A stretch of 64,000 nucleotides of DNA from Saezia sanguinis (GTDB taxonomy: Bacteria > Pseudomonadota > Gammaproteobacteria > Burkholderiales > Burkholderiaceae_C): positions 388,420 to 452,419 of the forward strand of contig NZ_PQSP01000002.1 in NCBI RefSeq assembly GCF_003991585.1, read 5' to 3'. Positions 595 to 21,402 of this stretch are shown here, piece by piece. The notes under the pieces are model-generated. The model was given only the letters and a program-made list of their open reading frames with translations, made no database searches and was not told the origin of the DNA. The translations under genes and the position numbers were made by a program. The stretch's first letter is position 1, and each line of letters begins with the position of its first letter.

Positions 595-3500
595 TTGCAT
601 AAAAACAAGATCACCATGAAACACCAGAACCCATACTGCCAACACCCGTCTGCTGTGTTGTCACGTCAGCTAACCTGCCTGGCGCTGTCAGTCGCTGTTG
701 CTTTCACGCCTTTGAGTGCTGCTTTTGCCCAGGTGGTGCCTGACCCGAATGCCGGGCAGTACCGTCCTGGTCAGACCAGTGCAGGCAATGGTGTACCTGT
801 TGTCAACATCACTGCGCCCAGCAGCTCGGGCGTGAGCCGCAACCAGTACCACCAGTTCAACGTCCAGCAACAGGGGCTGATCCTTAACAACAGTGTTATT
901 AATACCCAAACCCAGTTAGGCGGCTGGATACAGGGAAATCCTAACCTGCCCTATGGTGCCGCCCGTGTCATATTGAACGAAGTCACCTCCGGCAACCCCT
1001 CGCTGCTGCGCGGCTACATCGAAGTCGGCGGCCAGCGGGCCGAAGTCATCATTGCCAACCCGGCCGGCATTTCAGTCGATGGTGCAGGCTTCATCAACGC
1101 CGCCGGCGTCACCCTCACCACCGGCACGCCCGTCTTTAACAACAGTGGTAACCTCGAATCCTACCGCGTTGGCGGTGGGCGAGTCAGTATTGGTGGGGCG
1201 GGACTGGACACCTCCACTGCCGACTACACCCGCATCATCGCCCGGGCCGTAGAAATCAATTCGGGACTCTGGGCCAATGACCTCAGCATCGCTGCGGGAA
1301 CCGGCACCTTTGCACCGGACGGCACCCCCATCCAACTCACTGAACTCACTGTGGAAGACGCCAGTGGCAAACCCCTGTACGCCATTGACGTGGCCCAACT
1401 GGGTGGCATGTACGCCGGCAAAATCCGCCTCATCGGCACCGAAGCCGGTGTTGGAGTCCGCAATAGCGGACACATCGGGGCCAGCGCCGGGCAGGTCACT
1501 GTCACCGCAGACGGCATGCTTGTCAACAGCGGCACGATTAACAGCAGCCATTCGGTAGCCGGGAGCAGCGGCATCCAGGTCGCTGCGGCCAGTGGCATCA
1601 GCAACACCGGGAGCCTTTACACCCAGGGGCAACTGGTACTCAACAGCAACGGCCAGCTGGATAACCAGGGCACGCTGGCAGCGCTTGGCAACGTCAGCCT
1701 CAATGCGCAAAACATCCACAACACCGCAGACGGACTCATTGCCGCCGGCATGGCAACCGATGGCAGCTTCGACACCCAAGGCCAGCTCAATGCCACGGCA
1801 CAACAGCTACTATCCAACCAGGGCCAGATACTCAGTGGTGCCAACACCACCCTGCAAGCCAATACCCTCACCAACACCAGTGCCACCATCCATGCCGGAA
1901 AAGACCTGAACATCACGGCAGACACCATCCACAACCAGCAGGCCGACCTGCTTGCATCGGGCAACCTGCACATCCAGGGCCTGAACCCGAACACCTCCGT
2001 CAACAGCCAACTCAACAACCAGAACGGCCTCATCTCTGCGGCTGGGCAGGCCCAAATCAGCACCGGCAGCATTGACAACAGCGCTGGCGTCATCATCAGC
2101 GGCGGCAACCTTGCCATCACTACCGGCGACCTCAACGGAGCCGGACAAATCCTCACCGAAGCCAATGCTGACATCACGGTACAAGGCGACTACACCGCTG
2201 AGGCCGGTAACCAGATCATCGCCGATGGCAACCTCCTGCTCAACGTGGACGGGACGCTTACCAATGCCGGAGACATACTCGCTGGTAACACCGCCAGCAT
2301 CACTGCGCACAGCATCGACAACCTGTCCGGTGGCGAAATCAGCGCAGGCACCAATCAGATCACTGCCACCGGCACCAACGCAGGCACCTTCACCAACAGA
2401 GGACTCATCGACGGCATCCTCACCTATATTACTGCCGATGCGCTCACCAACCTGGGCAGCGGACGTATCTACGGCAACCACATCGGCATCCAGGCGGGAA
2501 CGCTCACCAACCGCGACGAGAACAACCAGAGTGCAGTCATTGCCGCGCGTGAGCGCATGGATATTGGCGCTGCAACGCTAACCAATCTGAACAATGCTGT
2601 CATCTTCAGTGCCGGCGACATGTCTATCGGCGGTTCGCTTGATGAGAACCACATTGCGCAAGGCCGTGCAAATTTAGTTTATAACGACGGTGCTGTGATT
2701 GAGGCCCTGGACGACATGCAAATTGCTGCTGCCAGCATCGAGAACCGTAACACCGTCTTCCAGTCCGAGGAACGCGCGCAAAGCTCACAGGACAAATTCA
2801 TCCACATCATCGGCCAATACCTGTTTGATAACGAAGATATTGTCTACTTCAGCGAAGGTGCCTATGGTGACTACAGCTTCCAGATTGTGGGCAAAGGCAG
2901 CGACATCCTCTCCACCATCGCGCTCATTGGTGAAAGCTCACACTACTTCCTCATGCTGCCATCAAGCAAATACCCGATGGCAGACTATCCCTACCTGTAC
3001 CAGCGCGGCGGCCTGCCATTTGCCGCGCTCGATGACGACGGCAACCCTGCCAACTATGAACCCGAAACCACCCAGCTGTGGCAAACCTTCGGCATTCCCA
3101 TACCCAGTGCCAAACCCGGGCAACCCGCCACCATTTGCAACGGCAGCACCACCTGCAACAACGCACAGCAACAAGCCTACGACCAGTACTTAAGCGACTA
3201 TACCGCCTGGCAGGACAGCAACCGCTCCCTGTACCAGCAACTCAACGACAAAATCTTTGACTTCAACGCAGACTTCCTCACCCGCAAAATCAGCATGGAG
3301 AACCTGCGCGAATACACCGAAACCAGATACAGCACCGAAGTCACCGCCAGCAATCCCGGGCAAATCAGCGCTGCGGGCAGCATGCTGCTGGACGGCAACC
3401 TCGTCAACGACAAAAGCCGCATCACCGCAGGCAGCATCATTGCCACCACCGGCAACGTACAAACCATAGACGCCACCGGCGTCAACTACGTCGAGCGCAT

Positions 3501-6500
3501 CGGCAGCGAAATCTCCACCATCCGCACCGCCAGCGGGCGCAGCTGGACACCGCCGGTCGCCGTCAACGAACGCGACGCCGCCAGTCAGTACAGCCTCATC
3601 GTCGCCACCCCACAGCCAAACACCACCGTACAAGGCAGCGGCACGCAGATCGGTAACACACCTGTGGTACAGCTTCCCAATGGCGACCTGATCCAGGCTG
3701 CAAGCCCCAACACCCGCATCCCCGCGAGCAGCCTGTACCAGATCAACCCCGGCAGCAGCAAAAACTACCTCATAGAAACCGACCCACGCTTTGCCAGCTA
3801 CGGCACCTGGCTCACTTCTGACTACATGCTTGCCGCCCTCGGGCTCGATCCGGCGGCCACCCAAAAGCGCCTGGGCGACGGATTCTACGAACAACAACTG
3901 ATCCGCGAGCAGATCGGCCAGCTCACCGGTTATCGTTACCTGGCAGGCTACCTCAGTGATGAAGCACAATACCAGGCGCTGATGAATGCAGGCGTTCAAT
4001 TCGCTCAGGAATACAACCTCACCGTGGGTGTGACGCTCACCGCCGAACAAATGGCGCAACTCACCGGCGACATCGTGTGGCTCGTCAGCACTGAAGTCAC
4101 CCTGCCCGACGGCAGCACAGAAACCGTGCTCGTACCCCAGCTCTACACCCGGGGCGGGACCAGTATGATCACCGCCGGCGGCTCGCTCATCAGCGCCAAC
4201 AACGTCTACATCACCTCAGCAGAAGGCAACCCCATCACCTTGAACAACAACGCCACCATCGCCGGGCGTGAAGGCCTGTTTGTCGATGTCGCCTACCTGC
4301 AAAACCGCATCGGCCAGTTGCACGGCGGCGATGTTGTCTTAAGGTCAGCCACCGACATTGACAACATCGGCGGCACCATCTCAGGGGACAACAGCATCAC
4401 CCTGGCTGCCGCCAGAGACATCAACATCGCCTCCACCGTTGTAGACGGCTACGACATCAACGGCCAGCGCAACGGCATCGGCAACATCGGCAGCGTCTAC
4501 TTAAGCGGCAGGCAAGTGCTTGCTTCTGAGCAGCCGCCCGAACAACAGCCCGCTGCATATAGCGCCCAATCCCGCAGTGTCTCATCTGACACCACGACCG
4601 ATACCACAACCAGTGAACCCTCCGGCAGCAACCAGGGTCAGATCCTGCTGAGCGCCGGGCGCGACATCAACCTGCGTGCGGGTTACATTGGTAATGACGC
4701 CACCGTTTCCACCACCACCGAAGACGGCAGCCAGACCACGGTTGGGGGCAGCACAAACTTGGTCGCCGGGCGCAACATCGACCTGTCCACCGTCACCACC
4801 GAGCACCAGCAAACCCTCAACTTTGACGCCCGCAACAGCCGCGCTCAAGCCAGCCGTGCTGAGGTCGGCAGCCAGATACAAGGCACGGGCGACATCAACC
4901 TCATCGCTGACGGCAACCTGCACCTGCGCGCCTCCGGCGTCCAAAGCGACAGTGGGACTATGAACGCTGCTGCCGACACCATTCATATTGAAGCCGGAGA
5001 AGCGCAGCAAAGCTGGGACGCCTCCTACTATGCCAAATTCAACGGCACCCTGGGTTCCAGCAGCTACGACAACCGCTACAACATCACCGAAGGCAACCTC
5101 ATTGGCTCCACCCTGAGTGCCGAGCAAATCAACCTGCAAAGCCGGGGCGACACCACCATCCAGGCCTCCAGTGTCGTTGCCACGCATGACATCAACCTGT
5201 CTTCCGAGCAAGGCAACATCAACATCGTCTCGGGCACCAGCACCCGCCACACCGAAGCTGACGAAACCACAAAACGCAGCGGTATCTTCACCAGCGGCGC
5301 ATCCCTGACCGTTGGCAACCAAAAAACCGCCACTACTGACACCGTCGACAACAGCTATGCGGTGGCCTCCACCGTCGGCAGCCTGCAAGGTGATGTCAAC
5401 ATCCTGGCCCAACAAGGCAGCTACAACCAGGTAGGCAGCGACCTCCTGGCGCTACAGGGCGACATCAACGTCGTCGCGCAAGACATCAACATCCTTGAAG
5501 CCCGCGAAACCAGCCAGCGCTACCAGACCTACGAATATCAACAAAGCGGCCTCACACTGGGTGTGAGCAGCCCTATCATCAGCGCCGGACAATACACCCA
5601 GCAAATGAGCGATGCGGCAGACCGCACCAGCGACTCACGCATGCAGGCACTGGCCGCCGGTGCTGCGGCCCTGAACATCGCCAACAACGCCAGCGACATC
5701 ATGGACAACGCCCAGGGCATAGGCGATGCCCTCTCCAGCGGCGACATCGGCAGCGCCGGGCTGCAACTCTCCGTGAGCATCGGCAGCACCAAGGCACAAA
5801 GCCAGACCCTGCAACAAAGCGACAGCGCCAAAGGCTCCACCCTAAACGCCGGGGGCAACATCAATCTCATTGCCACAGGCAATCCAAATCCTTCCACAGG
5901 CAAACCAGACACCACGCAAGGCAGTGAAGAAAAACCCACCTACAGCGGCGGCAACATCCTGATCCAGGGAAGTGACATCACAGCCGGGCAAAACATTGTG
6001 CTCGCGGCCAACGACCAGATCAACATCCGTGCGGCTGCCAACACCGCCACAGAAAGCAGCAGCAACAAAAGCAACTCAGGCGCACTGGGTGTGACCATCG
6101 GCAGCAACATCGGGATCACCGCCAGCGCCAGCCAGGGTAGTGGCAACAGTCACACCGCAGACAACAGCTGGACCTACAGCCACGTCAGTGCCGACGACAC
6201 CCTCACCCTCATCAGCGGGGGAGATACCAACATCATCGGCGCCCAGGTCGCCGGCAACACCGTGCGGGCCGACATCGGCGGCGACCTCAACATCCAAACC
6301 CTGCAAGACACCAGCCTGCACCACAGCCAGCAAAGCAGCGGCGGCGGCTCACTGACCATCGGCACCGGGCTCACTGGGATTGGCGGCACCGTCAGCAGCG
6401 GCAAAAGCCATGTCGACGGCAACTACGCCAGCGCACAGGAATACGCCGGCATCATGGCAGGCGACGGCGGCTTTGACATCACCGTCGCCGGCAACACCGA

Positions 6501-8664
6501 CCTCAAAGGCGCCATCATTGCCAGCACGCAAGCAGCGGTAGACGACAACAAAAACCAGTTAACCACCGGCAGCCTCACCATCAGCCAGCTTGCCAACAAC
6601 AGCAACTATGACGCCAAAGGCAGCTCGATTGGCATCGGCTACAACACCAGCAATGCAGACACCAATCTGGCAGACAAACCCGGCATGCAGTCAGCCGTTG
6701 GGGCTCTCTCGGGTAACTCGGTAGGATATGCCAGCGACAGCGGCAGCGACAGCAGCATCACCATCGCCGGCATCAGCACCGGCAGCATCACCATCACCAA
6801 CGAAGAAGAACAGCAACGCAGAACCGGACAGACGGCAGAAGAAGCGATTGCCGCCATCAACGACAGTGTACGCACCGGGCAGAGTGTGAACGGCATAGAC
6901 AAGAACTGGGACGCGCAGCAGCTGATGGATGACATGCAGGCCGGTGCGGAAATTACTGCGGCGTTTGGGCAGCAGGCTTCGCAAGGTGTAGGCAACTTCG
7001 CAACCGCCAAAGTACGACAAGCCCTGTCCATGATGGCCCAGGCCGATCTGCTGGAAGCCACCGATCCACAAGCCGCGACAGAATTACGTACCCAGGCGCA
7101 AGAAATGTACGGCAACTGGAAAGAAGGTGGCGCGTACCGGGTACTGGCGCATACCATTGTTGGGGGTCTCAGTGGCGACTGGAGCGGTGCCGCCGGTGCG
7201 GGCAGCAGCGCCCTCATTGCCGGACAACTCGACGACCTCACAGCTGACCTGCCCCCGGGTGTGAAAGAAGCCGTAGGCGCGGGCGTATCGGCAGGCCTGG
7301 GCTACCTCACGGGGGGAGAACAGGGCGCGACGACAGCGTTCAATACAGACGCCAACAACCGGCAGTTGCACGTAGACGAAATCGCCTGGATCAAACGCCA
7401 CGCACAAGAGTTTGCCAACCAGCAAGGCATCAGTGAAGAAGAAGCCACCAGCATACTGGCACGGCAGGCGCTGATGCAGATCGACTGGGTATGGTACGAA
7501 AAATTCGGCGGCAAAGACGCCTACAACACACAAGCTGCGGCCTTCCTCTCAGGCGCAGGCACCTTGAGCGAAGGCGATGCCACCCAGCAGATGTTTACCG
7601 CCACAGGTGACCAGTATACCCGGCCCTACCTGTTTGCCGAAGATGTACACAATAGCGGCAACTTAAGCTTTTACGAACAGTATGTTATCCGTGACAGCGA
7701 CAAATCCACCTCACAGGTCATGCTCGAAAACGAATGGCGGGGACTCACCGGGCTGCCACAGGGGCTGTGGGACAAATGGAGTGCCTATCAGGGAGAGCGT
7801 GAAGGCGTTGCGTGGCTGCTTTCCGGCCCGACCTTCCTGTTTGACACCCTGTACATGGACGCTATCGGCAAACCGTTTGCCAACGCTGTAGAAAACCCGC
7901 AAGTCATCGCTGAGAGAATACAGGCCGGTGCTGAAGGCGTCAAGGCTATCGGCGGCGAACTCACCCCAGGGCCATCACTGCTCAGCCAGATATATGGCGA
8001 CAACACCGTTCTGCTGTCAGGCAACCTGGCGGTGGCAGATGCAGCACTGCCTGTTGCCGGTATTGTAGGCGTGGGCAAGGCAGGCCAGTTGGTAGGCAAG
8101 GAGTTGCTCAGCAATACGGGCAGCAAGACCGTCAGGCCGAGTGCTTCTTCGGAAAGTACGCCTTCTTCATCGAATGCGAATGCTAGCACAGCGACACCTT
8201 TATATCTGAGTAATTCGACTGCGCCAGAAGTGCAAGCTAGGTTGAATGGTTTGGCGGCTGAAGCACGGCAAGGGTTACCTCCGAACAAAGGAAATGTGGC
8301 TGTGGCAGAAATTAACATTCCAGAGTTGGCAGATCAGCCATTTATAACAAAAGCATTTAGTGGCTATCAAACCGATAAAGATGGATTTGTTGGAAAACCA
8401 TCTGGTAATGTAGATACATGGGCGCTGCAACCACAAAAATCAAGTCCAGAGTTTATTGGCGGTCCGGGGGCGTATTTTAGAGATGTTGATACAGAATTTA
8501 AAATTTTAGAGAATTTAGCGCAAAAACTTGGGCCAAATACAAATGCAACTGGTACAGTTAATTTAATATCAGAAAAAGTCGTTTGTCCTAGCTGTACAAC
8601 CGTCATTATGCAGTTCAGAGAACGTTATCCTAATATCCAACTGAATATATTTACTAGGGATTGA
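595..8664 (+). CDS. cdiA: CdiA / filamentous-haemagglutinin family TpsA exoprotein (2689 aa) with a variable C-terminal toxin domain
   Basis: N-terminal extended signal peptide plus TPS (haemagglutination activity) domain: NPNLPYGAARVILNEVTSGNPSLLRGYIEVGGQRAEVIIANPAGISVDGAGFINAAGVTLTTGTP. This is followed by about 2000 aa of Gly/Asn/Thr-rich FHA-type beta-helical repeats. An AVENP (VENN-like) motif lies near aa 2435. A sharp AT-rich shift over the last ~170 codons (from ~8160) marks a swapped CT toxin. An alternative start is at 616 (MKHQNPY). Confidence 0.85.
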   Translation: MHKNKITMKHQNPYCQHPSAVLSRQLTCLALSVAVAFTPLSAAFAQVVPDPNAGQYRPGQTSAGNGVPVVNITAPSSSGVSRNQYHQFNVQQQGLILNNSVINTQTQLGGWIQGNPNLPYGAARVILNEVTSGNPSLLRGYIEVGGQRAEVIIANPAGISVDGAGFINAAGVTLTTGTPVFNNSGNLESYRVGGGRVSIGGAGLDTSTADYTRIIARAVEINSGLWANDLSIAAGTGTFAPDGTPIQLTELTVEDASGKPLYAIDVAQLGGMYAGKIRLIGTEAGVGVRNSGHIGASAGQVTVTADGMLVNSGTINSSHSVAGSSGIQVAAASGISNTGSLYTQGQLVLNSNGQLDNQGTLAALGNVSLNAQNIHNTADGLIAAGMATDGSFDTQGQLNATAQQLLSNQGQILSGANTTLQANTLTNTSATIHAGKDLNITADTIHNQQADLLASGNLHIQGLNPNTSVNSQLNNQNGLISAAGQAQISTGSIDNSAGVIISGGNLAITTGDLNGAGQILTEANADITVQGDYTAEAGNQIIADGNLLLNVDGTLTNAGDILAGNTASITAHSIDNLSGGEISAGTNQITATGTNAGTFTNRGLIDGILTYITADALTNLGSGRIYGNHIGIQAGTLTNRDENNQSAVIAARERMDIGAATLTNLNNAVIFSAGDMSIGGSLDENHIAQGRANLVYNDGAVIEALDDMQIAAASIENRNTVFQSEERAQSSQDKFIHIIGQYLFDNEDIVYFSEGAYGDYSFQIVGKGSDILSTIALIGESSHYFLMLPSSKYPMADYPYLYQRGGLPFAALDDDGNPANYEPETTQLWQTFGIPIPSAKPGQPATICNGSTTCNNAQQQAYDQYLSDYTAWQDSNRSLYQQLNDKIFDFNADFLTRKISMENLREYTETRYSTEVTASNPGQISAAGSMLLDGNLVNDKSRITAGSIIATTGNVQTIDATGVNYVERIGSEISTIRTASGRSWTPPVAVNERDAASQYSLIVATPQPNTTVQGSGTQIGNTPVVQLPNGDLIQAASPNTRIPASSLYQINPGSSKNYLIETDPRFASYGTWLTSDYMLAALGLDPAATQKRLGDGFYEQQLIREQIGQLTGYRYLAGYLSDEAQYQALMNAGVQFAQEYNLTVGVTLTAEQMAQLTGDIVWLVSTEVTLPDGSTETVLVPQLYTRGGTSMITAGGSLISANNVYITSAEGNPITLNNNATIAGREGLFVDVAYLQNRIGQLHGGDVVLRSATDIDNIGGTISGDNSITLAAARDINIASTVVDGYDINGQRNGIGNIGSVYLSGRQVLASEQPPEQQPAAYSAQSRSVSSDTTTDTTTSEPSGSNQGQILLSAGRDINLRAGYIGNDATVSTTTEDGSQTTVGGSTNLVAGRNIDLSTVTTEHQQTLNFDARNSRAQASRAEVGSQIQGTGDINLIADGNLHLRASGVQSDSGTMNAAADTIHIEAGEAQQSWDASYYAKFNGTLGSSSYDNRYNITEGNLIGSTLSAEQINLQSRGDTTIQASSVVATHDINLSSEQGNINIVSGTSTRHTEADETTKRSGIFTSGASLTVGNQKTATTDTVDNSYAVASTVGSLQGDVNILAQQGSYNQVGSDLLALQGDINVVAQDINILEARETSQRYQTYEYQQSGLTLGVSSPIISAGQYTQQMSDAADRTSDSRMQALAAGAAALNIANNASDIMDNAQGIGDALSSGDIGSAGLQLSVSIGSTKAQSQTLQQSDSAKGSTLNAGGNINLIATGNPNPSTGKPDTTQGSEEKPTYSGGNILIQGSDITAGQNIVLAANDQINIRAAANTATESSSNKSNSGALGVTIGSNIGITASASQGSGNSHTADNSWTYSHVSADDTLTLISGGDTNIIGAQVAGNTVRADIGGDLNIQTLQDTSLHHSQQSSGGGSLTIGTGLTGIGGTVSSGKSHVDGNYASAQEYAGIMAGDGGFDITVAGNTDLKGAIIASTQAAVDDNKNQLTTGSLTISQLANNSNYDAKGSSIGIGYNTSNADTNLADKPGMQSAVGALSGNSVGYASDSGSDSSITIAGISTGSITITNEEEQQRRTGQTAEEAIAAINDSVRTGQSVNGIDKNWDAQQLMDDMQAGAEITAAFGQQASQGVGNFATAKVRQALSMMAQADLLEATDPQAATELRTQAQEMYGNWKEGGAYRVLAHTIVGGLSGDWSGAAGAGSSALIAGQLDDLTADLPPGVKEAVGAGVSAGLGYLTGGEQGATTAFNTDANNRQLHVDEIAWIKRHAQEFANQQGISEEEATSILARQALMQIDWVWYEKFGGKDAYNTQAAAFLSGAGTLSEGDATQQMFTATGDQYTRPYLFAEDVHNSGNLSFYEQYVIRDSDKSTSQVMLENEWRGLTGLPQGLWDKWSAYQGEREGVAWLLSGPTFLFDTLYMDAIGKPFANAVENPQVIAERIQAGAEGVKAIGGELTPGPSLLSQIYGDNTVLLSGNLAVADAALPVAGIVGVGKAGQLVGKELLSNTGSKTVRPSASSESTPSSSNANASTATPLYLSNSTAPEVQARLNGLAAEARQGLPPNKGNVAVAEINIPELADQPFITKAFSGYQTDKDGFVGKPSGNVDTWALQPQKSSPEFIGGPGAYFRDVDTEFKILENLAQKLGPNTNATGTVNLISEKVVCPSCTTVIMQFRERYPNIQLNIFTRD

Positions 8665-8670
8665 TAAACT

Positions 8671-9069
8671 ATGCCTCAGTTTACGAAAACAAGTCAATGG
8701 AAACGATTTGATAATTTTAAAAAAGGGTTGGAGTTTTCAAGAGAAATATATACAGAGGCTATTCAAGAATATGGACTTAATGAATATCAAGCGTTTTCGT
8801 TTTTATATGAGGAAATAGACTCTGAGCTATTTTCGTCGGATAAGATAGAAAGATTTAAAGCCTATACAGCCTTATTTTTTTGTGCTTATGAGCATAAAGT
8901 TGATTTTATTTTAGATGATCCTTTTACTGAAAATGTATTTGATAGATTAAAAAATCTCTATAAAGATTTTTATTCAAATAGTGAGAATTTAAAAAATATT
9001 CCAGACATGCAAGACGAGGAGTCGCAAAAAATTATTAGGATCGTAAAAGAAAACTACGTTAAAAATTAG
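8671..9069 (+). CDS. cdiI: putative CdiI-like immunity protein (132 aa)
   Basis: Small acidic AT-rich ORF that starts 7 nt after the cdiA stop. It has the same low-GC composition as the CdiA-CT. This is the canonical position of a cognate immunity gene, but no family is recognisable. Confidence 0.55.
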   Translation: MPQFTKTSQWKRFDNFKKGLEFSREIYTEAIQEYGLNEYQAFSFLYEEIDSELFSSDKIERFKAYTALFFCAYEHKVDFILDDPFTENVFDRLKNLYKDFYSNSENLKNIPDMQDEESQKIIRIVKENYVKN

Positions 9070-9273
9070 TCATAATAATCTGGCATAAAAGTGGCGATTG
9101 GCCTACCCGACTGATACAAAACATCATGTCAATTTGTGTCCAGTTTCTGCTTTGCCTATATGCCTTACTGATCAGTTTTACATTAGCCTGTATAGTTGCT
9201 TTGGGCATTTGAAAAACTATTAAAACAGATAAGAGAGTTTATTGATTCTAAATTTTAATTTACAGGGAGACAT

Positions 9274-11697
9274 ATGCCGACTTCAGTACAAGAGTTAGTT
9301 AATGATACTATTCCAGAACAAACAGTGTTAATTTTTGGGGCAGGGGCATCAATTCCATCAGGTTCCCCATCCGTTGCTATGCTCATAGAAAAGATCAGCA
9401 CAGAATTTGGTATTCCGCCTGATGGATTAACTTTGGCAGAAATATCTGGACTGGCTGAAAGAAAGCGAAATAGGAAAGAACTGATATCTCTCCTTAGAAA
9501 GGAGTTCAAAAATCTTCGCCCAAAGGGTTCAATCCTTAATTTGCCTCTTTACAATTGGAAAAGTATCTACTCAACAAATTACGATGAATTAGTTGAAGAC
9601 TCTTACAAAAGAGTTGGTAAAAGTCTTATATCATTTTCATCTAATTTTGACTTTACAATTCATGACGACCCAAACGCAACAAAGCTTTTCAAAATTCATG
9701 GAACTATAGCTAAAGACATATCTGATGGGAATGCATCGCGAATAATTTTAACTGACATGGATTATGATCAAACACAGGACTATCGGGAAGCTCTTTATCT
9801 ACGATTGGCGACAGACCTTACGTCAGGCCCGCAAGTTATTATAGTAGGGCAATCATTGGCTGATCCAGATCTTAAGGATATTGTCCAAAAAGCTATTGAG
9901 ACTAATCAGAAGGCAATGGCTGGAGGAAGAATCAGTCTCCTTCTTCACACACAAGATCTGAATCGGGCATTATTATTTGAAGCTCGTGGTTTACGCATTG
10001 CTTTCGGTGGGTTAGATGAATTTTTCGCAGCGTTGTCCTCCAAAGCTCCAGACTATTTAACTGCTCATATTGATACTGGTGACATACTTGATTCATTTCC
10101 ATCGTTGAGACCGGTTTCTTATGTTGTTGCAGACGAATTTGACGCATCTAAAGCAGATGTTAGTGCAATATTCAATGGGTGGCCAGCCAAGTTTGCAGAG
10201 CTTGCAGCTGGTTATACCTTTGATCGTACTATTGCTTCAGAGATTTTTGAATATCTGAAACAAGAAAACAAGGTTTGTGCGGTGCTATTAGGAGCGAGTG
10301 GCGTCGGGAAAACGACTGCTGCTCGCCAAGTTATAGTTAAACTAAAAGCAACCGGATTTTATACATGGGAACACAAAACTGATCATCCGCTCAATGTGAA
10401 TGAGTGGCTAGGTGTTGCGCAACGTCTCTCTTCTTCCCAAAAGTCTGGTGTGCTATTAATTGATGACGCTCATTCTCATCTACACCAAGTAAACGACTTA
10501 ATTGACAGGCTAGCGGCAAACAAACAGAATAGCTTAAAAATTATTTTAACTTCTACTCGCAACCATTGGGTCCCTCGTATAAAGTCTCCAAGTATCTATG
10601 CACTTGGCCAAGAATTTGGGTTATCCAAACTTACAAGTCAGGAAATCGATAGGCTTCTAACTTTAGTACAGTCGGCACCACTGCTTCGTAGTCTAGTTGA
10701 AGCTGGTTTTGGTGGTTTTTCTTTGCATGAACAAAGACGGCGACTAATTGATAGATGTGAAGCGGATATGTTTGTTTGCTTAAAAAACATTTTTGCATCA
10801 GAAAAGTTCGATGATATTATCCTCAGAGAATATGCAAGTTTGGACGAACGAGAACAGGAAGTGTATCGGTCAGTTGCTGCAATGGAATACGCTGGAATCA
10901 GAGTACATAGGCAACTTGTAATTCGTCTTTTAAGTATTCCTACAAACGAAATATCGCACCTTTTAGCGTGCCTAGACGAGATTATCAGCGAATATGAAGT
11001 TAACCGTGTCGAGGGCATTTATGGATGGAGGGTGCGGCACTATGTAATAGCAAGTATTATTGCAAAATATAAATTTTTTGAAACGGGAAAAATTATTGAT
11101 CTTTTCAATAAAGTAATTGATCAAATATCTCCAACGTATGACATTGAGATTAGAACAATTCGAGAGTTGTGCAATATCGAATCTGGACTGTCTGTTATCC
11201 CTGATAAACAGATCCAAAATACGCTTCTTCGCAAAATGATGTCCATCGCTCCTGGAGAACGAGTCCCCCGTCACCGCCTAATCCGAAATCTAATCGAGCT
11301 TGGAGAGTTTGAAAAAGCCGAATCCGAAATTCGAATATTTGAGAAAGATTTTAAACGTGACGGTCCAGTCATTCGATATCGAATCCTTTTGTCAATTGCT
11401 CGTGCAACTCATACAGCTGATCTCCTTCAGGAAGATCGAGTTGCAATATTGGAGCAAGCAAGAGAGTTGGCTGCAACTGCTAGCGTTCAATTCGAAAATA
11501 ACAAATCAGTGCTAGGAGCTTATTGCGAATTAGGTGTTGAGACATTTCGCCTTACCGGATCCCATATGGTTTATGATACTGCCTTAGATTTACTAAAGAA
11601 AGCAGAAGTACGTCTAGGGGATCCAGAGATTACCAAAATGATTATGCGCTATCAGCGACGAATTGCTGCGCATAATATTACAGATGAAGAGTCTTAG
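9274..11697 (+). CDS. SIR2-domain STAND NTPase with C-terminal helical/TPR-like sensor region (807 aa); Avs5-like antiphage candidate
   Basis: N-terminal SIR2-like Rossmann motifs: VLIFGAGASIPSG, IYSTNYDEL (TQNID-like) and FKIHGT (catalytic His). Central P-loop NTPase: Walker A LLGASGVGKTT, Walker B VLLIDDAH, then ILTSTRNHW. C-terminal ~350 aa is helical. The gene is AT-rich. GGAG lies upstream of the ATG. Confidence 0.7.
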   Translation: MPTSVQELVNDTIPEQTVLIFGAGASIPSGSPSVAMLIEKISTEFGIPPDGLTLAEISGLAERKRNRKELISLLRKEFKNLRPKGSILNLPLYNWKSIYSTNYDELVEDSYKRVGKSLISFSSNFDFTIHDDPNATKLFKIHGTIAKDISDGNASRIILTDMDYDQTQDYREALYLRLATDLTSGPQVIIVGQSLADPDLKDIVQKAIETNQKAMAGGRISLLLHTQDLNRALLFEARGLRIAFGGLDEFFAALSSKAPDYLTAHIDTGDILDSFPSLRPVSYVVADEFDASKADVSAIFNGWPAKFAELAAGYTFDRTIASEIFEYLKQENKVCAVLLGASGVGKTTAARQVIVKLKATGFYTWEHKTDHPLNVNEWLGVAQRLSSSQKSGVLLIDDAHSHLHQVNDLIDRLAANKQNSLKIILTSTRNHWVPRIKSPSIYALGQEFGLSKLTSQEIDRLLTLVQSAPLLRSLVEAGFGGFSLHEQRRRLIDRCEADMFVCLKNIFASEKFDDIILREYASLDEREQEVYRSVAAMEYAGIRVHRQLVIRLLSIPTNEISHLLACLDEIISEYEVNRVEGIYGWRVRHYVIASIIAKYKFFETGKIIDLFNKVIDQISPTYDIEIRTIRELCNIESGLSVIPDKQIQNTLLRKMMSIAPGERVPRHRLIRNLIELGEFEKAESEIRIFEKDFKRDGPVIRYRILLSIARATHTADLLQEDRVAILEQARELAATASVQFENNKSVLGAYCELGVETFRLTGSHMVYDTALDLLKKAEVRLGDPEITKMIMRYQRRIAAHNITDEES

Positions 11698-11893
11698 CGT
11701 TCAGTATTGACCTGCCTGAGAAATTCCGACTACTAGGAATCAGAGATTTTGGCCGTGGTTGCTAAATCATAGTTCAGTGTGCCAATGAATTGTCGTGGAG
11801 TAAGGTAATTCGGGCTTGAATGCGGTTTGACGAAAGGTATGACGGTAATCCCCCCGCAAAAGCGTAGGCGAATTCAACTGGTCAGTGCAACAC

Positions 11894-11934
11894 CTGGAGA
11901 GTAGCAATATCTGGAGAGTAGCAATATCTGGAGG
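11894..11934. repeat. 17-bp direct tandem repeat (2.4 copies) ctggagagtagcaatat in an intergenic region
   Basis: cacCTGGAGAGTAGCAATAT CTGGAGAGTAGCAATAT CTGGAGG, read directly from the sequence. Confidence 0.8.
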
Positions 11935-12098
11935 TGTATGATGGTAAGCATTTATGGAGCGATGACACATGAGCGCAAAACCAGAATATGGGAATTGTGG
12001 CGGAAGGGCATTCCCATGAGTTTGATTGCTTGCGATATAGCAAATCCACTTGATCTGGCTTTGGTCTTGTTGTTGTTTCTTCTGCATCGATACATTCC

Positions 12099-13817
12099 TC
12101 AGCTCGCCGCCGTGCTTGTGGCGACGACGAGATTCCAATGGTCTTTGAGGACGCCCACAAGGCGCTTCTGACGTTCGGCCAGAAGCGTGGGCGTCCACTC
12201 GTTCTCTGATCTGACTTCCTGCGTCAGCACGAAGGGCGACGCCTTGCCTTTGCCCTTGAAGTAGGCGTCCTTCTTCTTGGCAAAGTCGTAGTTGCTGGCA
12301 GACGAGTTCTTGTTCCTATCCAGCGGAACCAGATTGGCCAAACGGTGTGTCCAGCCATCGCGCTCGTCTTCATCCGGGAACCACTTGATCCAGTCCGAAC
12401 CGTCGGGCGGGGTTTGCGGCAGAACGTGCTCCAGAGACACGGCATCTTGAAGCTGCACGCCGGGGGCGCGCACCAAGGATTCAAGGCGTAAGACCAGCAC
12501 CATCCGTGCCTTGGGCAGATCGTCGTAAACGTCCCCATCGAGTGCCGCAACGAACTTGCCCTTTTGCGCGTCAGTCAGAACCAGCGTGGTGAGCGCAGCC
12601 AGATCCTCATTGAAGGTCTCCGGTTCGATTTCCTTGGTGAGCGCGGCGTAGGTTTCGATGCGCTCGTTGATGCCCACCTTGGTGACCAGCAGGAAATAGG
12701 TCAGGCGTTCCAGTGACTGGAAAAACTCTGCGAGCAATTTGGGCTGCTGCCGGAAGCGCTTGAAGTAAACCAGTGCCGGGGGCACCCAGTCCTTGAAGTC
12801 CACACGGTTGAGCCAAGACAGGTGCTCGTTGATCGTTTCGGCATGTTCGGTGGCCTCGAAGTCGGCATCGCGCACAAAGTCCCACACTTCAGCATAGGGT
12901 TTGATGACCTTGTCGACGAGGTCGATAGGGGTCTTGTACTCGGTGACGTGCTCCTGGAACTCCTTGACCAGGATGTACTTCTGCTTCTTCTTGGCGTAGA
13001 TGCTGCGGATGTGGCCAAACAGGTCACCGAAGGCGTCGCGTCCCAGTGAGCTTTCGATCCGGCTCCACTCTTTTGCGTAGGCGCGGCTTTTGACGTCGCC
13101 TGCCGTGGTGCGGATCAGGCCCAGCACCTGCGCCTTGATGATGTCGATAGGCGCGAGGTCGAGTCCCCGGTTGTTGAGTACGGAGAAGATGCGGTAGGCG
13201 GCTTCAAGGTCGGGCGTGGAGATGACAACCAGCGAGCAGTCGTTGGCGAGGAACTGCCACAGCGCAATGAGGTCGGCAGGCGGAAGCGCCTTGGCCTTTT
13301 CGAGCAGCAGCGTGGCGTTTTCACGGTAACGCAGACGGCTGTCTTTCAGCTTGTCCGTACTGGCGACCAACTGTGCGATGCCACCCGGCTCTTGAATATT
13401 GGTGCGGAAGAAGTCGGCATCTTCCTCGCGGGCGGTCAGGCGGTACTCGTTTTTCTCGCCAAGACTGACCTTGCCCTTCTTGTAGAGGAAGTCTGTGATG
13501 TCGTCTGCAGCATCCGGCATCACGATGCGCAACACGGCGAACAGCATCGTGAGCGTAGACAGGCGTTGCTGGCCGTCGACCACCGATGACTTAGGGTCCC
13601 GGTCGTTCTTGATCAGAACAATGCTGCCGAGGAAATATTGGCTGCTGGCCCCCGAGACACGCGCGTCCTGCATCGCCGAGTACAGATCATCGAACAGCTC
13701 TGTGGCCTGTTCGGTTGTCCAAGCGTAGGGGCGCTGGTAGTCCGGAATCTCGAACTGGTAGCTGCCTTCGAAGATCTCCCGGATCAGTTTGTCGTGGGCT
13801 TCAAGTGTCTTGGCCAT
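12099..13817 (-). CDS. DUF262 (ParB-like/GmrS N-terminal) plus DUF1524 (HNH-like/GmrD C-terminal) protein; GmrSD-family type IV restriction-like nuclease (572 aa)
   Basis: N-terminal FEIPDYQRPYAWTTEQATELFDD and VVDGQQRLSTL (the DGQQR motif of DUF262). C-terminal LEHVLPQ...RLANLVPLDRNKNSSASNYDF (His-Me/HNH-like DUF1524). The gene is GC-rich compared with neighbour 9274..11697. Confidence 0.75.
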   Translation of the reverse strand: MAKTLEAHDKLIREIFEGSYQFEIPDYQRPYAWTTEQATELFDDLYSAMQDARVSGASSQYFLGSIVLIKNDRDPKSSVVDGQQRLSTLTMLFAVLRIVMPDAADDITDFLYKKGKVSLGEKNEYRLTAREEDADFFRTNIQEPGGIAQLVASTDKLKDSRLRYRENATLLLEKAKALPPADLIALWQFLANDCSLVVISTPDLEAAYRIFSVLNNRGLDLAPIDIIKAQVLGLIRTTAGDVKSRAYAKEWSRIESSLGRDAFGDLFGHIRSIYAKKKQKYILVKEFQEHVTEYKTPIDLVDKVIKPYAEVWDFVRDADFEATEHAETINEHLSWLNRVDFKDWVPPALVYFKRFRQQPKLLAEFFQSLERLTYFLLVTKVGINERIETYAALTKEIEPETFNEDLAALTTLVLTDAQKGKFVAALDGDVYDDLPKARMVLVLRLESLVRAPGVQLQDAVSLEHVLPQTPPDGSDWIKWFPDEDERDGWTHRLANLVPLDRNKNSSASNYDFAKKKDAYFKGKGKASPFVLTQEVRSENEWTPTLLAERQKRLVGVLKDHWNLVVATSTAAS

Positions 13818-13854: not shown

Positions 13855-14772
13855 TCAACTCATCTTGGTTATTGTTTCGGGCTGAACTATTTCTATGACC
13901 TGGAACGTCTTGGATGTGCTTCCCGCAAGGTGAAGCACTACCTCGTCGCCTATGACAGCCCCGAGTATTGCCTGTGCCAGAGGGCGGCTTTCATTCACAA
14001 TCCCGTTGGCAAAGTTATCTTTACCTCTGGTGATCTGGACAGTCATTACGTCGTTAGGACGAGCAAGATCGATGTATCGAACTACGTCACCTACCTCGAT
14101 TTCGAGGTCATCTTCTGTGTCGATCAGTACAGAGCTAATCGCTTCTCGCTCCCTCTCAGCTTGAACAGCGTTCGCAACCGATTCAATTTGCTGAGTCACC
14201 CGGGCAGTGAGTTGTCCAGCACCTTGTCCTTCTTCGATCCAGGCGTCTCCTGATGTGTGCTCGGGCTTCCAGCTCTCGCGCAAATACTCAAGGAAGTTGA
14301 TGAGCTTCTCGGTTTCTTGTCGTGGAGTGCAGAACCAGTCCGTTGACCAGATGCGCCAAATGCGACCACACCAGCCAAGAGCTTCAAGGATCTCTTGACG
14401 GATGCGGTCACGATCGGGAACTGACAAAGCAGAGTGGTAGGTTGCTCCGTCGCATTCGATTGCTGCCAGATACGATCCTGGCGCGTCTGGATGCTTGACG
14501 GCGATGTCAATGCGGTATCCCGCCACACCGAGCTGAGGGGTGACTTCATAGCCACGCATCTTGAGCATGTCCATGACGGAGATCTCGAAATCACTGTCTG
14601 GTTCGCGGTCTGTTTCCTCGATGGTCGGCAACGAGCCTGTGCGGGCGTACTCGAGGTAATTGCGCAGCGCCTTGGTGCCGTCCGGAGTAGTGCCATCCAT
14701 CACGATGTCTTCGGGACGAAGAGATGTGTACAGGGCGATTGACTTCTTGGCGCGGGTGAACAGCACGTTCAT
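13855..14772 (-). pseudogene. 3' remnant of a large SF1 helicase - Vsr-like endonuclease - DUF3320 gene (HheA-like architecture). Only the last ~305 codons are present.
   Basis: Begins at helicase motif VI (NVLFTRAKKSIALYTSL, AAA_12 end) immediately after an in-frame TAA. It then has a Vsr/DUF559-like block (IDIAVKHPDAPGSYLAAIECDGATYHS...DRDRIRQEILEALGWCGRIWRIWSTDWF) and a C-terminal DUF3320-like tail. No upstream helicase N-terminus is present; the integrase remnant abuts instead. Confidence 0.6.
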
Positions 14773-14837: not shown

Positions 14838-15605
14838 TTAGTATGGGTCACAAAAGTCAGCCCACTCCTGCATCAGTAATCTGCGTTTTTGCAGCATATC
14901 ACCTCTTTGATAAGCCGCTTCAGCCTTATCTTTGAGTTTATGAGCCAAAGCATGCTCAATGACCTCTCTTGGATAGTGTGTTGTTTCCCCAGCCCAATCC
15001 CTGAAAGTTGACCTGAAGCCATGCATCGTAATACCCTGGTAATCCATTCGTTTAAGCACAGCAGTCAAAGACATATCCGATAAAGCCTTATTTGACCTTG
15101 GCGCAGGAAAAACAAAATCACATCCATCCAGTCGGGGGAGATGATTGAGAAGCCTCATTGCTTTGTCGCATAAAGGAATTCGGTGCTCTTTATCCATCTT
15201 CATACGCCTGGCAGGAATAATCCAAAGCTTTTCCTCAAAATCAATTTCACTCCATAATGCCCCACGGATTTCTCCAGAGCGCGCCACAGTCAAAATAGCA
15301 AATTCAACTGCACGGGCAGAAACACCTTCGCGTTGCTGCAAAAGCTTTATAAACTGTGGTATATCTCTATAATGTAATGCTTTGAAATGCTCAACCCGCT
15401 GAATTTTACTTCTGGCTGGCAACAGCTTATCCATGTGACCTTTCCAGCGCGCAGGGTTCTCGCCTGAGCGGTAATTGCGTGCTGCAGCCCAATCCAAAAT
15501 TAATTCAATACGGTTTCTAACCCGGGTAGCCGTCTCCGTTTTCTCTTGCCAGATAGGCTCCAAAATCTTGAGCAATAAAGGCGTATCTACTAAGTCAACA
15601 GGCAA
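14838..15605 (-). pseudogene. tyrosine recombinase/phage-type integrase, N-terminally truncated (catalytic domain only, TTG-initiated ORF)
   Basis: Catalytic-domain residues: R (TVARSGEIRG), HGFRSTFRDW and the Tyr in AEAAYQRGD. An in-frame stop lies only ~31 codons upstream of the called start. About 120 to 150 aa of the arm-binding/core-binding N-terminus expected for P4-type integrases is therefore missing. Confidence 0.6.
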
Positions 15606-21328: not shown

Positions 21329-21402
21329 TGGAGCGGGTGAAGGGAATCGAACCCTCGTCTAAAGCTTGGGAAGCTGCCGTTCTACCATTGAACTACACCC
21401 GC
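21329..21402 (-). tRNA. tRNA-Gly (anticodon CCC)
   Basis: Reverse complement reads GCGGGTGTAGTTCAATGGTAGAACGGCAGCTTCCCAAGCTTTAGACGAGGGTTCGATTCCCTTCACCCGCTCCA. This is near-identical in shape to E. coli glyU, with the anticodon loop UUCCCAA, a 7-bp acceptor stem and an encoded CCA. Confidence 0.85.

Follow-up and report, generated by a model that had tools for sequence, protein, structure and literature searches.

Background

The closest described systems are the Avs5 (AVAST type 5) proteins. Those that have been characterised hydrolyse NAD+ when triggered by phage, require ATP binding and form filaments (PMC11897194, PMC12931631), and among Avs5 NADases the SIR2 motif occurs equally often as HG and as NG (PMC12931631). 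EfAvs5 (9JAP), PaAvs5-1, PaAvs5-2, PaAvs5-3 and EcAvs5 are each a single protein of ~800-850 aa, in which SIR2_2 is followed by a STAND NTPase and helical repeats.

The same effector family, with its catalytic residues, occurs in ThsA (Thoeris), KomC (Kongming) and DSR1/DSR2, although the STAND NTPase is missing in those proteins: ThsA carries a SLOG domain and depends on ThsB, KomC (264 aa) is one subunit of a system with several components and has a structure solved as the KomBC complex, and DSR2 combines the effector with a long helical sensor that has no P-loop. Human SAMD9/SAMD9L and bacterial Avs9 resemble the protein considered here in the SIR2-NTPase-TPR core alone; their effector is an AlbA_2 nuclease and not SIR2, it flanks the core (as does an OB fold in SAMD9), and the sequence identity is ~11%.

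Here we describe a gene of Saezia sanguinis that belongs beside these systems. We consider it probable that it encodes a stand-alone bacterial NLR-like SIR2-STAND immune receptor of AVAST type 5 (Avs5-like) and that the gene is cargo of a defence island. "The window" below means the whole stretch of 64,000 nucleotides that was analysed.

Results

The relevant part of the window contains the following genes and signals, those marked as context being given for orientation only.

595-8664, + strand: cdiA, with TPS, Fil_haemagg and a PF14424 deaminase toxin tip (context)
8671-9069, + strand: putative immunity ORF (cdiI), 132 aa, GC 0.28 (context)
9264..9270, + strand: Shine-Dalgarno-like AGGGAGA, 3 nt 5' of the SIR2-STAND ATG, read from the sequence
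9274..11697, + strand: SIR2-STAND gene, ATG start, 807 aa plus stop, uninterrupted translation (ORF scan)
12099-13817, - strand: GmrSD type IV restriction-like gene (context)
13855-14772, - strand: gene for a protein with REase_MTES_1575 and GreA/B-C (context)
14838-15605, - strand: truncated P4-like integrase (context)

A first-pass annotation had placed an AT-rich SIR2-STAND gene just downstream of a contact-dependent inhibition (CDI) module, and both statements hold. There is one intact ORF, its GC is 0.40 (GC3 0.29), whereas the window as a whole has 0.52 and the cdiA body 0.59, and it begins 204 bp 3' of the 132-aa ORF that follows cdiA, on the same strand. The product is 100% identical to S. 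sanguinis WP_126979183.1 (CUZ56_01216). A consensus sigma-70 promoter was looked for on the + strand of the 204-bp spacer (9070-9273) and none was found; promoter and terminator scans at the gene gave no signal exceeding shuffle expectation. The low GC had also been said to match that of CdiA-CT and CdiI, which is right as to the gene being GC-poor, but the match is approximate only (0.45 for cdiA-CT, 0.28 for cdiI).

Together with the GmrSD, REase-like and integrase genes the SIR2-STAND gene forms a defence/mobile island of ~8 kb that ends at ~16.2 kb. Horizontal acquisition of the gene, as the same annotation proposed, is supported: the composition, the island context and a patchy distribution across phyla agree. 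In all family loci checked (8/8) the GC of the gene is lower than that of its flanks, and the identity reaches 66% with a homologue in an Armatimonadota MAG. The gene is probably cargo of a decayed, integrase-borne defence island. A phage-encoded origin was considered and rejected, as tblastn against 50,697 phage records found no homologue.

The domain layout is as follows.

9274..10053, + strand: SIR2 (PF13289) effector domain, aa 1-260, Pfam E 6e-20
9337-9351, + strand: GAGAS motif, aa 22-26
9574-9585, + strand: TNYD motif, aa 101-104, with Asn102 at 9577-9579
9697-9702, + strand: HG motif, aa 142-143, with His142 at 9697-9699
10054..10233, + strand: SIR2-NTPase linker, aa 261-320, less conserved than any other segment (mean pairwise identity 41-49%)
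10234..10623, + strand: STAND nucleotide-binding domain (NBD), aa 321-450, Pfam nSTAND matches
10291-10314, + strand: Walker A GASGVGKT, aa 340-347, with Lys346
10447-10464, + strand: Walker B VLLIDD, with Asp396-Asp397
10624..11073, + strand: STAND helical (HD) and winged-helix (WHD) domains, aa 451-600, from AF2 secondary structure and alignment to EfAvs5
11074..11694, + strand: C-terminal TPR-like helical repeat domain, presumed sensor, aa 601-807

All the motifs named earlier (GAGAS, TNYD, HG and the P-loop) are thus in place, and the order of effector, STAND NTPase and helical repeats is confirmed by Pfam, AF2 and the profile alignment to EfAvs5. It had been pointed out that lack of the SIR2 catalytic His or Asn would speak against the assignment; both are present, and N102, H142, K346 and D397 are invariant across many phyla in a set of 46 homologues and in a set of 62. 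In Pfam the NTPase scores 54.7 bits with nSTAND_NTPase5 and 30 bits with nSTAND3, the latter above its cut-off of 27.2. No SAM, AlbA_2 or OB-fold domain was detected by Pfam in the 807-aa protein, which begins directly with SIR2, and an NCBIfam search returned sub-threshold P-loop matches and nothing else. The C-terminal domain is all-helical in two AF2 models and contains a near-invariant basic motif, APGER[VI]PRHRLIRNLI.

The family, which occurs in Proteobacteria, Nitrospira, Acidobacteria, Actinobacteria and further phyla, comprises >450 clusters (50% identity, E <= 1e-30). When the 1115 neighbour ORFs of 80 loci were clustered all against all, the largest neighbour family was present at 8 of the 80; this is a single-gene system without a conserved partner. 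The nearest neighbours include integrases, type I, II and IV restriction genes, AriA, AbiLi, Old, KAP and YobI NTPases (an unscored listing), and some family loci, for example in Nitrospira, sit amid ordinary metabolic genes. DNA similarity to relatives ends at the CDS boundaries of the SIR2-STAND gene, and a search for shared flanking DNA or mobile-unit boundaries around family genes found none.

Within the family the helical/winged-helix segment (aa 451-600) is the most conserved part (58-66% identity) and the only one that is so consistently across the sets; conservation at the DNA level is also strongest there. The C-terminal domain shows 49-61% identity. The idea of a sensor better conserved than the effector was tried and discarded: it is true in the 46-sequence set, the two are about equal in the 62-sequence set, and the order is reversed in actinobacterial members.

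Comparison with Avs5. A Foldseek search with the AlphaFold model returned, at the top, EfAvs5 (9JAP, E 2.7e-20) together with the AVAST5 filament (9NC9), and next human SAMD9. The family profile aligns with EfAvs5 in one collinear stretch through SIR2, NTPase and winged helix (E 7.9e-15, profile positions 63-536); the alignment reaches about residue 577-623 of EfAvs5 and covers the winged-helix region. The hhalign comparison of the family with four Avs5-type proteins gave 99.6% probability over 567 columns. At the level of single sequences the 807-aa protein has ~20% identity to characterised Avs5 (BLASTP E 1.3e-8), as much as has been published for different Avs5 clades (18-21%). The STAND NTPases of both match nSTAND3 as well as nSTAND5 (the EfAvs5 fragment nearly equally, with 33.9 and 33.8 bits), the motif spacing is almost that of PaAvs5-1, the gene is solitary by the neighbour clustering at 80 loci, as is that of Avs5, and the predicted C-terminal fold is generic TPR-like helical repeats, the fold type of the Avs5 C-terminus. 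The Avs5-like architecture claimed earlier is homologous to that of characterised Avs5 rather than analogous: profile alignment and predicted structure point to a shared fusion of effector and NTPase rather than to convergence. The view that the gene belongs with the known antiphage Avs5 proteins, as a further member and not something new, is largely supported.

The differences are as follows. The best NTPase model here is nSTAND5, not nSTAND3; HG is kept in the Saezia family, where the motif of EfAvs5 and PaAvs5-1 is NG; the HD/WHD and the C-terminus are at least as conserved as the catalytic domain, whereas PaAvs5 homologues are reportedly poorly conserved there; and BLAST-level searches with the two families recover non-overlapping sets of plasmid genes. 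A profile comparison of the C-terminal domain with Avs5-type C-termini gave no similarity (probability <1%). The isolated C-terminal domain matched generic TPR structures alone in Foldseek (E >= 0.02), with no specific likeness to the Avs5 or SAMD9 sensors; the sensor is specific to the family, and the trigger is therefore not transferable by homology.

Searches of collections gave the following. PADLOC v2, the Avs models of which had been proposed as a check, returned no Avs match for the 807-aa protein at E <= 1; this is uninformative on Avs5 membership, because a genuine EfAvs5 fragment (residues 122-577) was missed as well. In a representative-library search with the family profile the best 150 matches were the family itself, with no bridge to Avs5; the bridge was made via PDB profile matches and plasmid tblastn. 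None of six family accessions is in Table S1 of PMC12931631, which holds PaAvs5-1 PSI-BLAST homologues only, and none was found in the literature searched.

Other known systems. The closest sequence relatives outside the Saezia family are plasmid proteins of ~1045 aa with SIR2, nSTAND5 and TPR, for example UNC84816.1 of K. pneumoniae pKPC2_090249, WP_125320575.1 of Vibrio pectenicida and WP_068039562.1 of Psychrobacter. They have an identical Pfam domain set, share the GAGAS, TTNYD and HG motifs, and align at BLASTP E ~1e-24 and, in hhalign, at 100% with E 1.2e-39 over 723 columns; they differ in being ~240 aa longer at the C-terminus, with 21-25% identity, and are likewise uncharacterised. 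The extension of the hhalign alignment into the C-terminus was set aside as alignment carry-over, the C-termini alone giving <1% probability. PADLOC v2 returned no Avs match for these proteins either. This related family is found on Klebsiella resistance plasmids.

For aa 5-215 the best sequence matches are the SIR2 NADase effectors ThsA, KomC and DSR1/DSR2, of which KomC and ThsA are the closest. The whole protein was not assigned to any of these systems, whose partners and additional domains are absent here by Pfam and the neighbour clustering. A Thoeris ThsA identity was rejected, as Pfam finds no SLOG/STALD domain, no ThsB-type neighbour is conserved and the PADLOC ThsA match is confined to SIR2 (positions 11-207 of the 478 in the profile). 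A DSR1/DSR2 identity was rejected too, as the Saezia protein has a Walker A/B STAND NTPase and the Dsr1 match is weak (E 6.7e-5) and limited to the SIR2 part. An identity with SAMD9/Avs9 was rejected in the same way, as only the core is common and AlbA_2 and OB were undetected by Pfam.

Discussion

The family is a widespread and uncharacterised subfamily of putative Avs5-like SIR2-STAND defence proteins. By analogy, the Saezia protein would deplete NAD+ on sensing phage. What the data show is the starting point: one polypeptide, whose gene has no conserved partner. The resting state may be a closed monomer, as suggested by the AF2 model, which superposes over 511 residues on monomeric SAMD9. 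A phage-encoded protein would be bound by the C-terminal TPR-like domain; ATP at Lys346 and Asp396-Asp397 would then permit oligomerisation driven by NBD and WHD, which in EfAvs5 yields a filament; oligomerisation would let the SIR2 domains pair up as active dimers, in which Asn102 and His142 would hydrolyse NAD+ to ADP-ribose and nicotinamide; and the depletion of NAD+ would abort or arrest the infection.

The conservation of the C-terminal half could have another meaning, with the family as a separate lineage of Avs-type receptors that senses an invariant cue: a host signal (guard-type), a nucleic acid or nucleotide, or a single phage fold that is extremely conserved. It is proposed because conservation of the winged helix and of the TPR region extends over at least six phyla, with the motif mentioned above, whereas characterised Avs5 proteins recognise fast-evolving phage proteins. 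We regard this reading as unlikely.

It is also conceivable, and in our opinion quite improbable, that the STAND part is still the switch but the SIR2 domain modifies a specific phage or host protein or nucleic acid (by ADP-ribosylation or deacylation) with no bulk depletion of NAD+. Retention of HG is no argument for this, HG and NG being equally frequent among Avs5 NADases, and by sequence the domain is nearest to KomC and ThsA, both of them defence NADases; Pfam also detects neither a zinc ribbon nor a substrate-binding insert of the type usual in deacylases.

A non-immune role, either as a STAND signalling or housekeeping protein or as a selfish module that keeps the island in place by addiction, seems to us very doubtful. 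The unusually good conservation of sensor and winged helix across phyla is unlike the classic arms-race pattern, some loci have metabolic surroundings, and many STAND clades have no defence association (PMC12803255). Against this, Pfam shows no DNA-binding or other regulatory output domain, the effector belongs to the SIR2_2 family of known defence systems, and the gene is AT-rich, sporadic in distribution and flanked by integrase and restriction genes. The nearest structures are those of immune proteins; the nearest relatives are immune STANDs and not transcription regulators, clustering with which the first-pass annotation had named as a ground for refutation.

That the gene is a functional CDI accessory, answering an incoming CdiA toxin for example or belonging to an orphan toxin/immunity array, is highly improbable in spite of its place 204 bp downstream of cdiI, in the same orientation and with no promoter detected between, and of a Herbaspirillum homologue (65% identity) two genes downstream of a CdiA-like gene, since that is the single case (1/80) of a CdiA relative within 10 kb at the other family loci, with none at the remaining 79, no neighbour family is conserved across the 80 loci, DNA similarity to relatives halts at the CDS ends, and the GC of 0.40 differs from the 0.28 of cdiI. 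The adjacency to CDI is incidental and positional only, and a functional link was rejected.

If the Avs5-like immune receptor is the correct reading, the Avs5/SAMD9-like SIR2-STAND group, which has an experimental anchor, would gain a subfamily that is large and uniform and has so far gone unannotated, and its short, well-conserved TPR sensor would be a tractable case for the discovery of a new trigger. As regards the window, the finding is an ordinary one, a further single-gene defence system in a small island of defence genes. In databases the family members are labelled "SIR2 family protein" or "NAD-dependent protein deacylase".

Results

The SIR2-STAND gene is one unbroken ORF of 807 codons with an ATG start, preceded at 3 nt by a ribosome-binding site (AGGGAGA); its product is identical (100%) to CUZ56_01216 / WP_126979183.1 of Saezia sanguinis (Burkholderiales, Saeziaceae). 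The first-pass annotation described an Avs5-like protein with a SIR2 domain, a STAND NTPase and C-terminal helical repeats, and every motif that it named was found in the translated ORF.

Features of the gene, its product and the surroundings
595-8664, cdiA, 2689-aa product with a TPS domain, haemagglutinin repeats and a PF14424 (BURPS668_1122-type) deaminase toxin tip
9274-11697, + strand, SIR2-STAND gene
aa 22-26 of its product, GAGAS
aa 101-104, TNYD
aa 142-143, HG
aa 340-347, P-loop GASGVGKT
aa 392-397, Walker B VLLIDD
about 11890-11930 (within 11880-12171), tandem direct repeat ATCTGGAGAGTAGCAAT, two copies
11938-12171, 77-aa ORF after the repeat, no Pfam match
12099-13817, - strand, GmrSD-type restriction enzyme, downstream of the SIR2-STAND gene
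13855-14772, - strand, 305-aa fusion of a REase_MTES_1575 nuclease domain and a GreA/GreB C-terminal domain, adjoining the GmrSD-type gene
14838-15605, - strand, P4-like tyrosine integrase beginning within the central domain (Phage_int_M position 40), without the arm-binding N-terminus

Pfam recognizes SIR2_2 (E 6e-20) and nSTAND_NTPase5 (E 1.3e-14) in the protein; nSTAND3 also exceeds its model cut-off, and the TPR match is weak. The AlphaFold2 model (46 homologues as input; pLDDT 83.7, pTM 0.69) opens with a SIR2 domain of Rossmann type, which is followed by an alpha/beta NBD, then by a segment with helical and winged-helix parts, and last by an all-helical tail (aa 604-802). The layout is borne out by Pfam, the motifs and the model, and the initial observation is confirmed with scores far beyond chance.

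Avs5 is defined by SIR2 (PF13289), nSTAND3 and helical repeats, and includes four clades with 18-21% mutual identity (PMC12931631). A Foldseek search with our model places EfAvs5 (9JAP, E 2.7e-20) and the AVAST5 filament 9NC9 on top, followed by human SAMD9 (TMq 0.45) and then by DSR2, KomC and ThsA. The family profile aligns with EfAvs5 (E 7.9e-15) in a single stretch that starts in SIR2, includes Walker A and B and reaches the winged helix; BLASTP of our protein with EfAvs5 gives E 1.3e-8. With full-length Avs5-type proteins, taken from plasmids by tblastn with an EfAvs5 fragment, hhalign yields 99.6% probability, E 5.8e-24 and 18% identity over 567 columns. The NTPase of EfAvs5 matches the nSTAND3 model as well as the nSTAND5 model, with equal scores; therefore, the different best model here is not a family boundary. 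The motif positions in PaAvs5-1 are almost the same as in our protein. His142 pairs with EfAvs5 Asn180 in the profile alignment; considering that Avs5 proteins have HG about as often as NG, the retained His is not unusual. A loss of the catalytic His/Asn, which would have spoken against the assignment, is not the case: G24, N102, H142, G143, K346, D397 and 49 further positions are invariant across 62 full-length members. The Avs5-like call is essentially right.

No specific likeness was seen in the sensor. The C-terminal domain alone has no profile similarity to the C-termini of Avs5-type proteins or of the 1045-aa group (SIR2 + nSTAND5 + TPR plasmid proteins of about this length), the probability being below 1%; a structure search with its separate AF2 model (pLDDT 78) returned generic TPR proteins only (E >= 0.02), neither Avs5 nor SAMD9. 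On plasmids, tblastn with our protein and with EfAvs5 retrieved disjoint gene sets, and six family accessions occur neither in the homologue table of PaAvs5 nor in the literature searched. PADLOC (PADLOC-DB v2.0.0) reports fragments of ThsA, LmuA, PDC-S25, PDC-S01, SspF and Dsr1. Its Avs models matched none of the SIR2-STAND proteins examined; this carries no weight, since a genuine EfAvs5 fragment (residues 122-577) was missed too. Annotation based on PADLOC v2 would probably miss much SIR2-STAND diversity.

Family conservation by domain (62-sequence set; 46-sequence set)
HD/WHD, aa 451-600: 58.5%; 66%
C-terminal TPR: 48.7%; 61%
SIR2: 48.2%; 55%
NBD: 41.8%; 51%

HD/WHD ranks highest. Conservation of the TPR tail is close to that of SIR2 and exceeds that of the NBD, whereas the sensor of PaAvs5 homologues is reported to be poorly conserved (PMC12931631). 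The pattern is reversed in the most distant actinobacterial members.

A search by word index yielded 660 relatives; the top 120 of these are all 792-831 aa long (98-100% query cover, 54-73% identity). At E <= 1e-3, an exhaustive profile search gave 6585 cluster representatives, of which 456 remained at E <= 1e-30; the best 150 are, without exception, full-length proteins of the identical layout or fragments of such proteins. The 126 relatives in a one-genome-per-species scan belong to Alpha-, Beta-, Gamma- and Deltaproteobacteria, Nitrospira, Acidobacteria, Armatimonadota, Planctomycetota and Actinobacteria (the last with 36-39% identity).

The gene is solitary: no conserved partner emerged from 1115 neighbouring ORFs, the largest neighbour family being integrase-like (8 of 80 loci), and DNA similarity among family loci ends at the CDS boundaries. 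Gene GC is below flank GC in all eight homologue loci examined. The context is mobile and defence-flavoured. The 142 nearest neighbours are mixed, with recurrent integrases, type I/II/IV restriction components, AriA, AbiLi, Old, and KAP and AAA_21 ATPases; single loci contain GmrSD_N + HEPN with a methyltransferase and a P2-like prophage, a YobI-ATPase, YhcG/ORF6N with transposases, or a resolvase. One Nitrospira locus has no defence or mobile genes of such kinds.

Two loci deserve a separate mention. In B. gladioli (L013), an 843-aa protein (2373-4904), in which AAA_16 and, faintly, an nSTAND5 P-loop are recognized, lies 3 kb upstream of the homologue, with a GmrSD_N + HEPN_RiboL-PSP pair in between and a P2-like prophage tail module nearby; the region is a dense defence hot spot. 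The 53%-identical copy on the large plasmid of P. savastanoi pv. phaseolicola 1448A (L008:8001-10425), annotated as three consecutive CDS (101, 441 and 274 aa), is probably a frameshifted pseudogene; it is flanked by IS elements and an integrase, and a type III effector gene is close by.

In the window, the 132-aa ORF after cdiA matches no Pfam family and is probably the immunity gene (cdiI); an ORF like cdiB/TpsB is seen neither in the 594 bp before cdiA nor directly downstream of cdiI. The repeat and the 77-aa ORF may be an insertion-element remnant between the SIR2-STAND and GmrSD genes. The nuclease-GreA/B-C fusion shares its effector + GreA/B-C layout with predicted counter-invader systems (Kaur et al. 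2021, PMC8195603). The truncated integrase has no tRNA gene beside it (the sole tRNA is tRNA-Gly, 21329-21402), and its region looks like a decayed island boundary; related integrases occur within 10 kb of the gene in 6 of the 80 other loci and directly downstream of it in L059, L098, L064 and L040. Beyond 16.2 kb, ordinary core genes follow (GH3, HD-domain protein, Ada/AlkA). GC differs between segments: 0.28 in the very AT-rich cdiI, 0.40 in the SIR2-STAND gene (GC3 0.29), 0.45 in cdiA-CT and 0.59 in GmrSD, against 0.52 in the whole window; hence the conflict genes in the stretch of about 8-16 kb were acquired separately and form a mosaic rather than one single-composition module.

Discussion

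The evidence best supports an Avs5-like receptor that would act alone. EfAvs5 assembles into ATP-bound filaments; these activate a SIR2 dimer, and NAD+ is hydrolysed (PMC11897194). By analogy with EfAvs5 and PaAvs5, from which we infer the trigger, oligomeric form and NADase activity, the TPR sensor would bind a phage product, the NBD and WHD would drive ATP-dependent oligomerisation that switches on the SIR2 domain, and NAD+ hydrolysis would abort the infection. The rivals that we list against this are a SIR2 domain with target-specific chemistry and a role in addiction or outside immunity. The weakest is a functional link to CDI, since a CdiA gene is nearby in only 1 of the 80 other loci. 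CDI loci may have insertion hot spots at their 3' ends. The single other locus with a CdiA gene is in Herbaspirillum sp. NPDC101397 (L019 / L021), where a 65%-identical homologue (L019:8001-10430) lies two genes 3' of a 2805-aa TPS/haemagglutinin CdiA-like gene, in the order CdiA-like gene, FRG-domain gene, homologue, RES-domain gene.

The Avs5-like protein is an uncharacterised member of a large, uniform subfamily of the SIR2-STAND (Avs5/SAMD9-like) kind and has its own TPR sensor; the ligand of this conserved sensor is the most interesting point about the family. The 1045-aa group is nearer to the family than Avs5-type proteins are (hhalign 100%, E 1.2e-39; BLASTP E about 1e-24); PADLOC v2 recognizes its SIR2 part alone. 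These uncharacterised proteins (L005:3761-6892 on K. pneumoniae plasmid pKPC2_090249, L006:2830-5973, L007:2767-5907) are carried by conjugative and mobilisable plasmids, including K. pneumoniae KPC carbapenemase plasmids (9 records).
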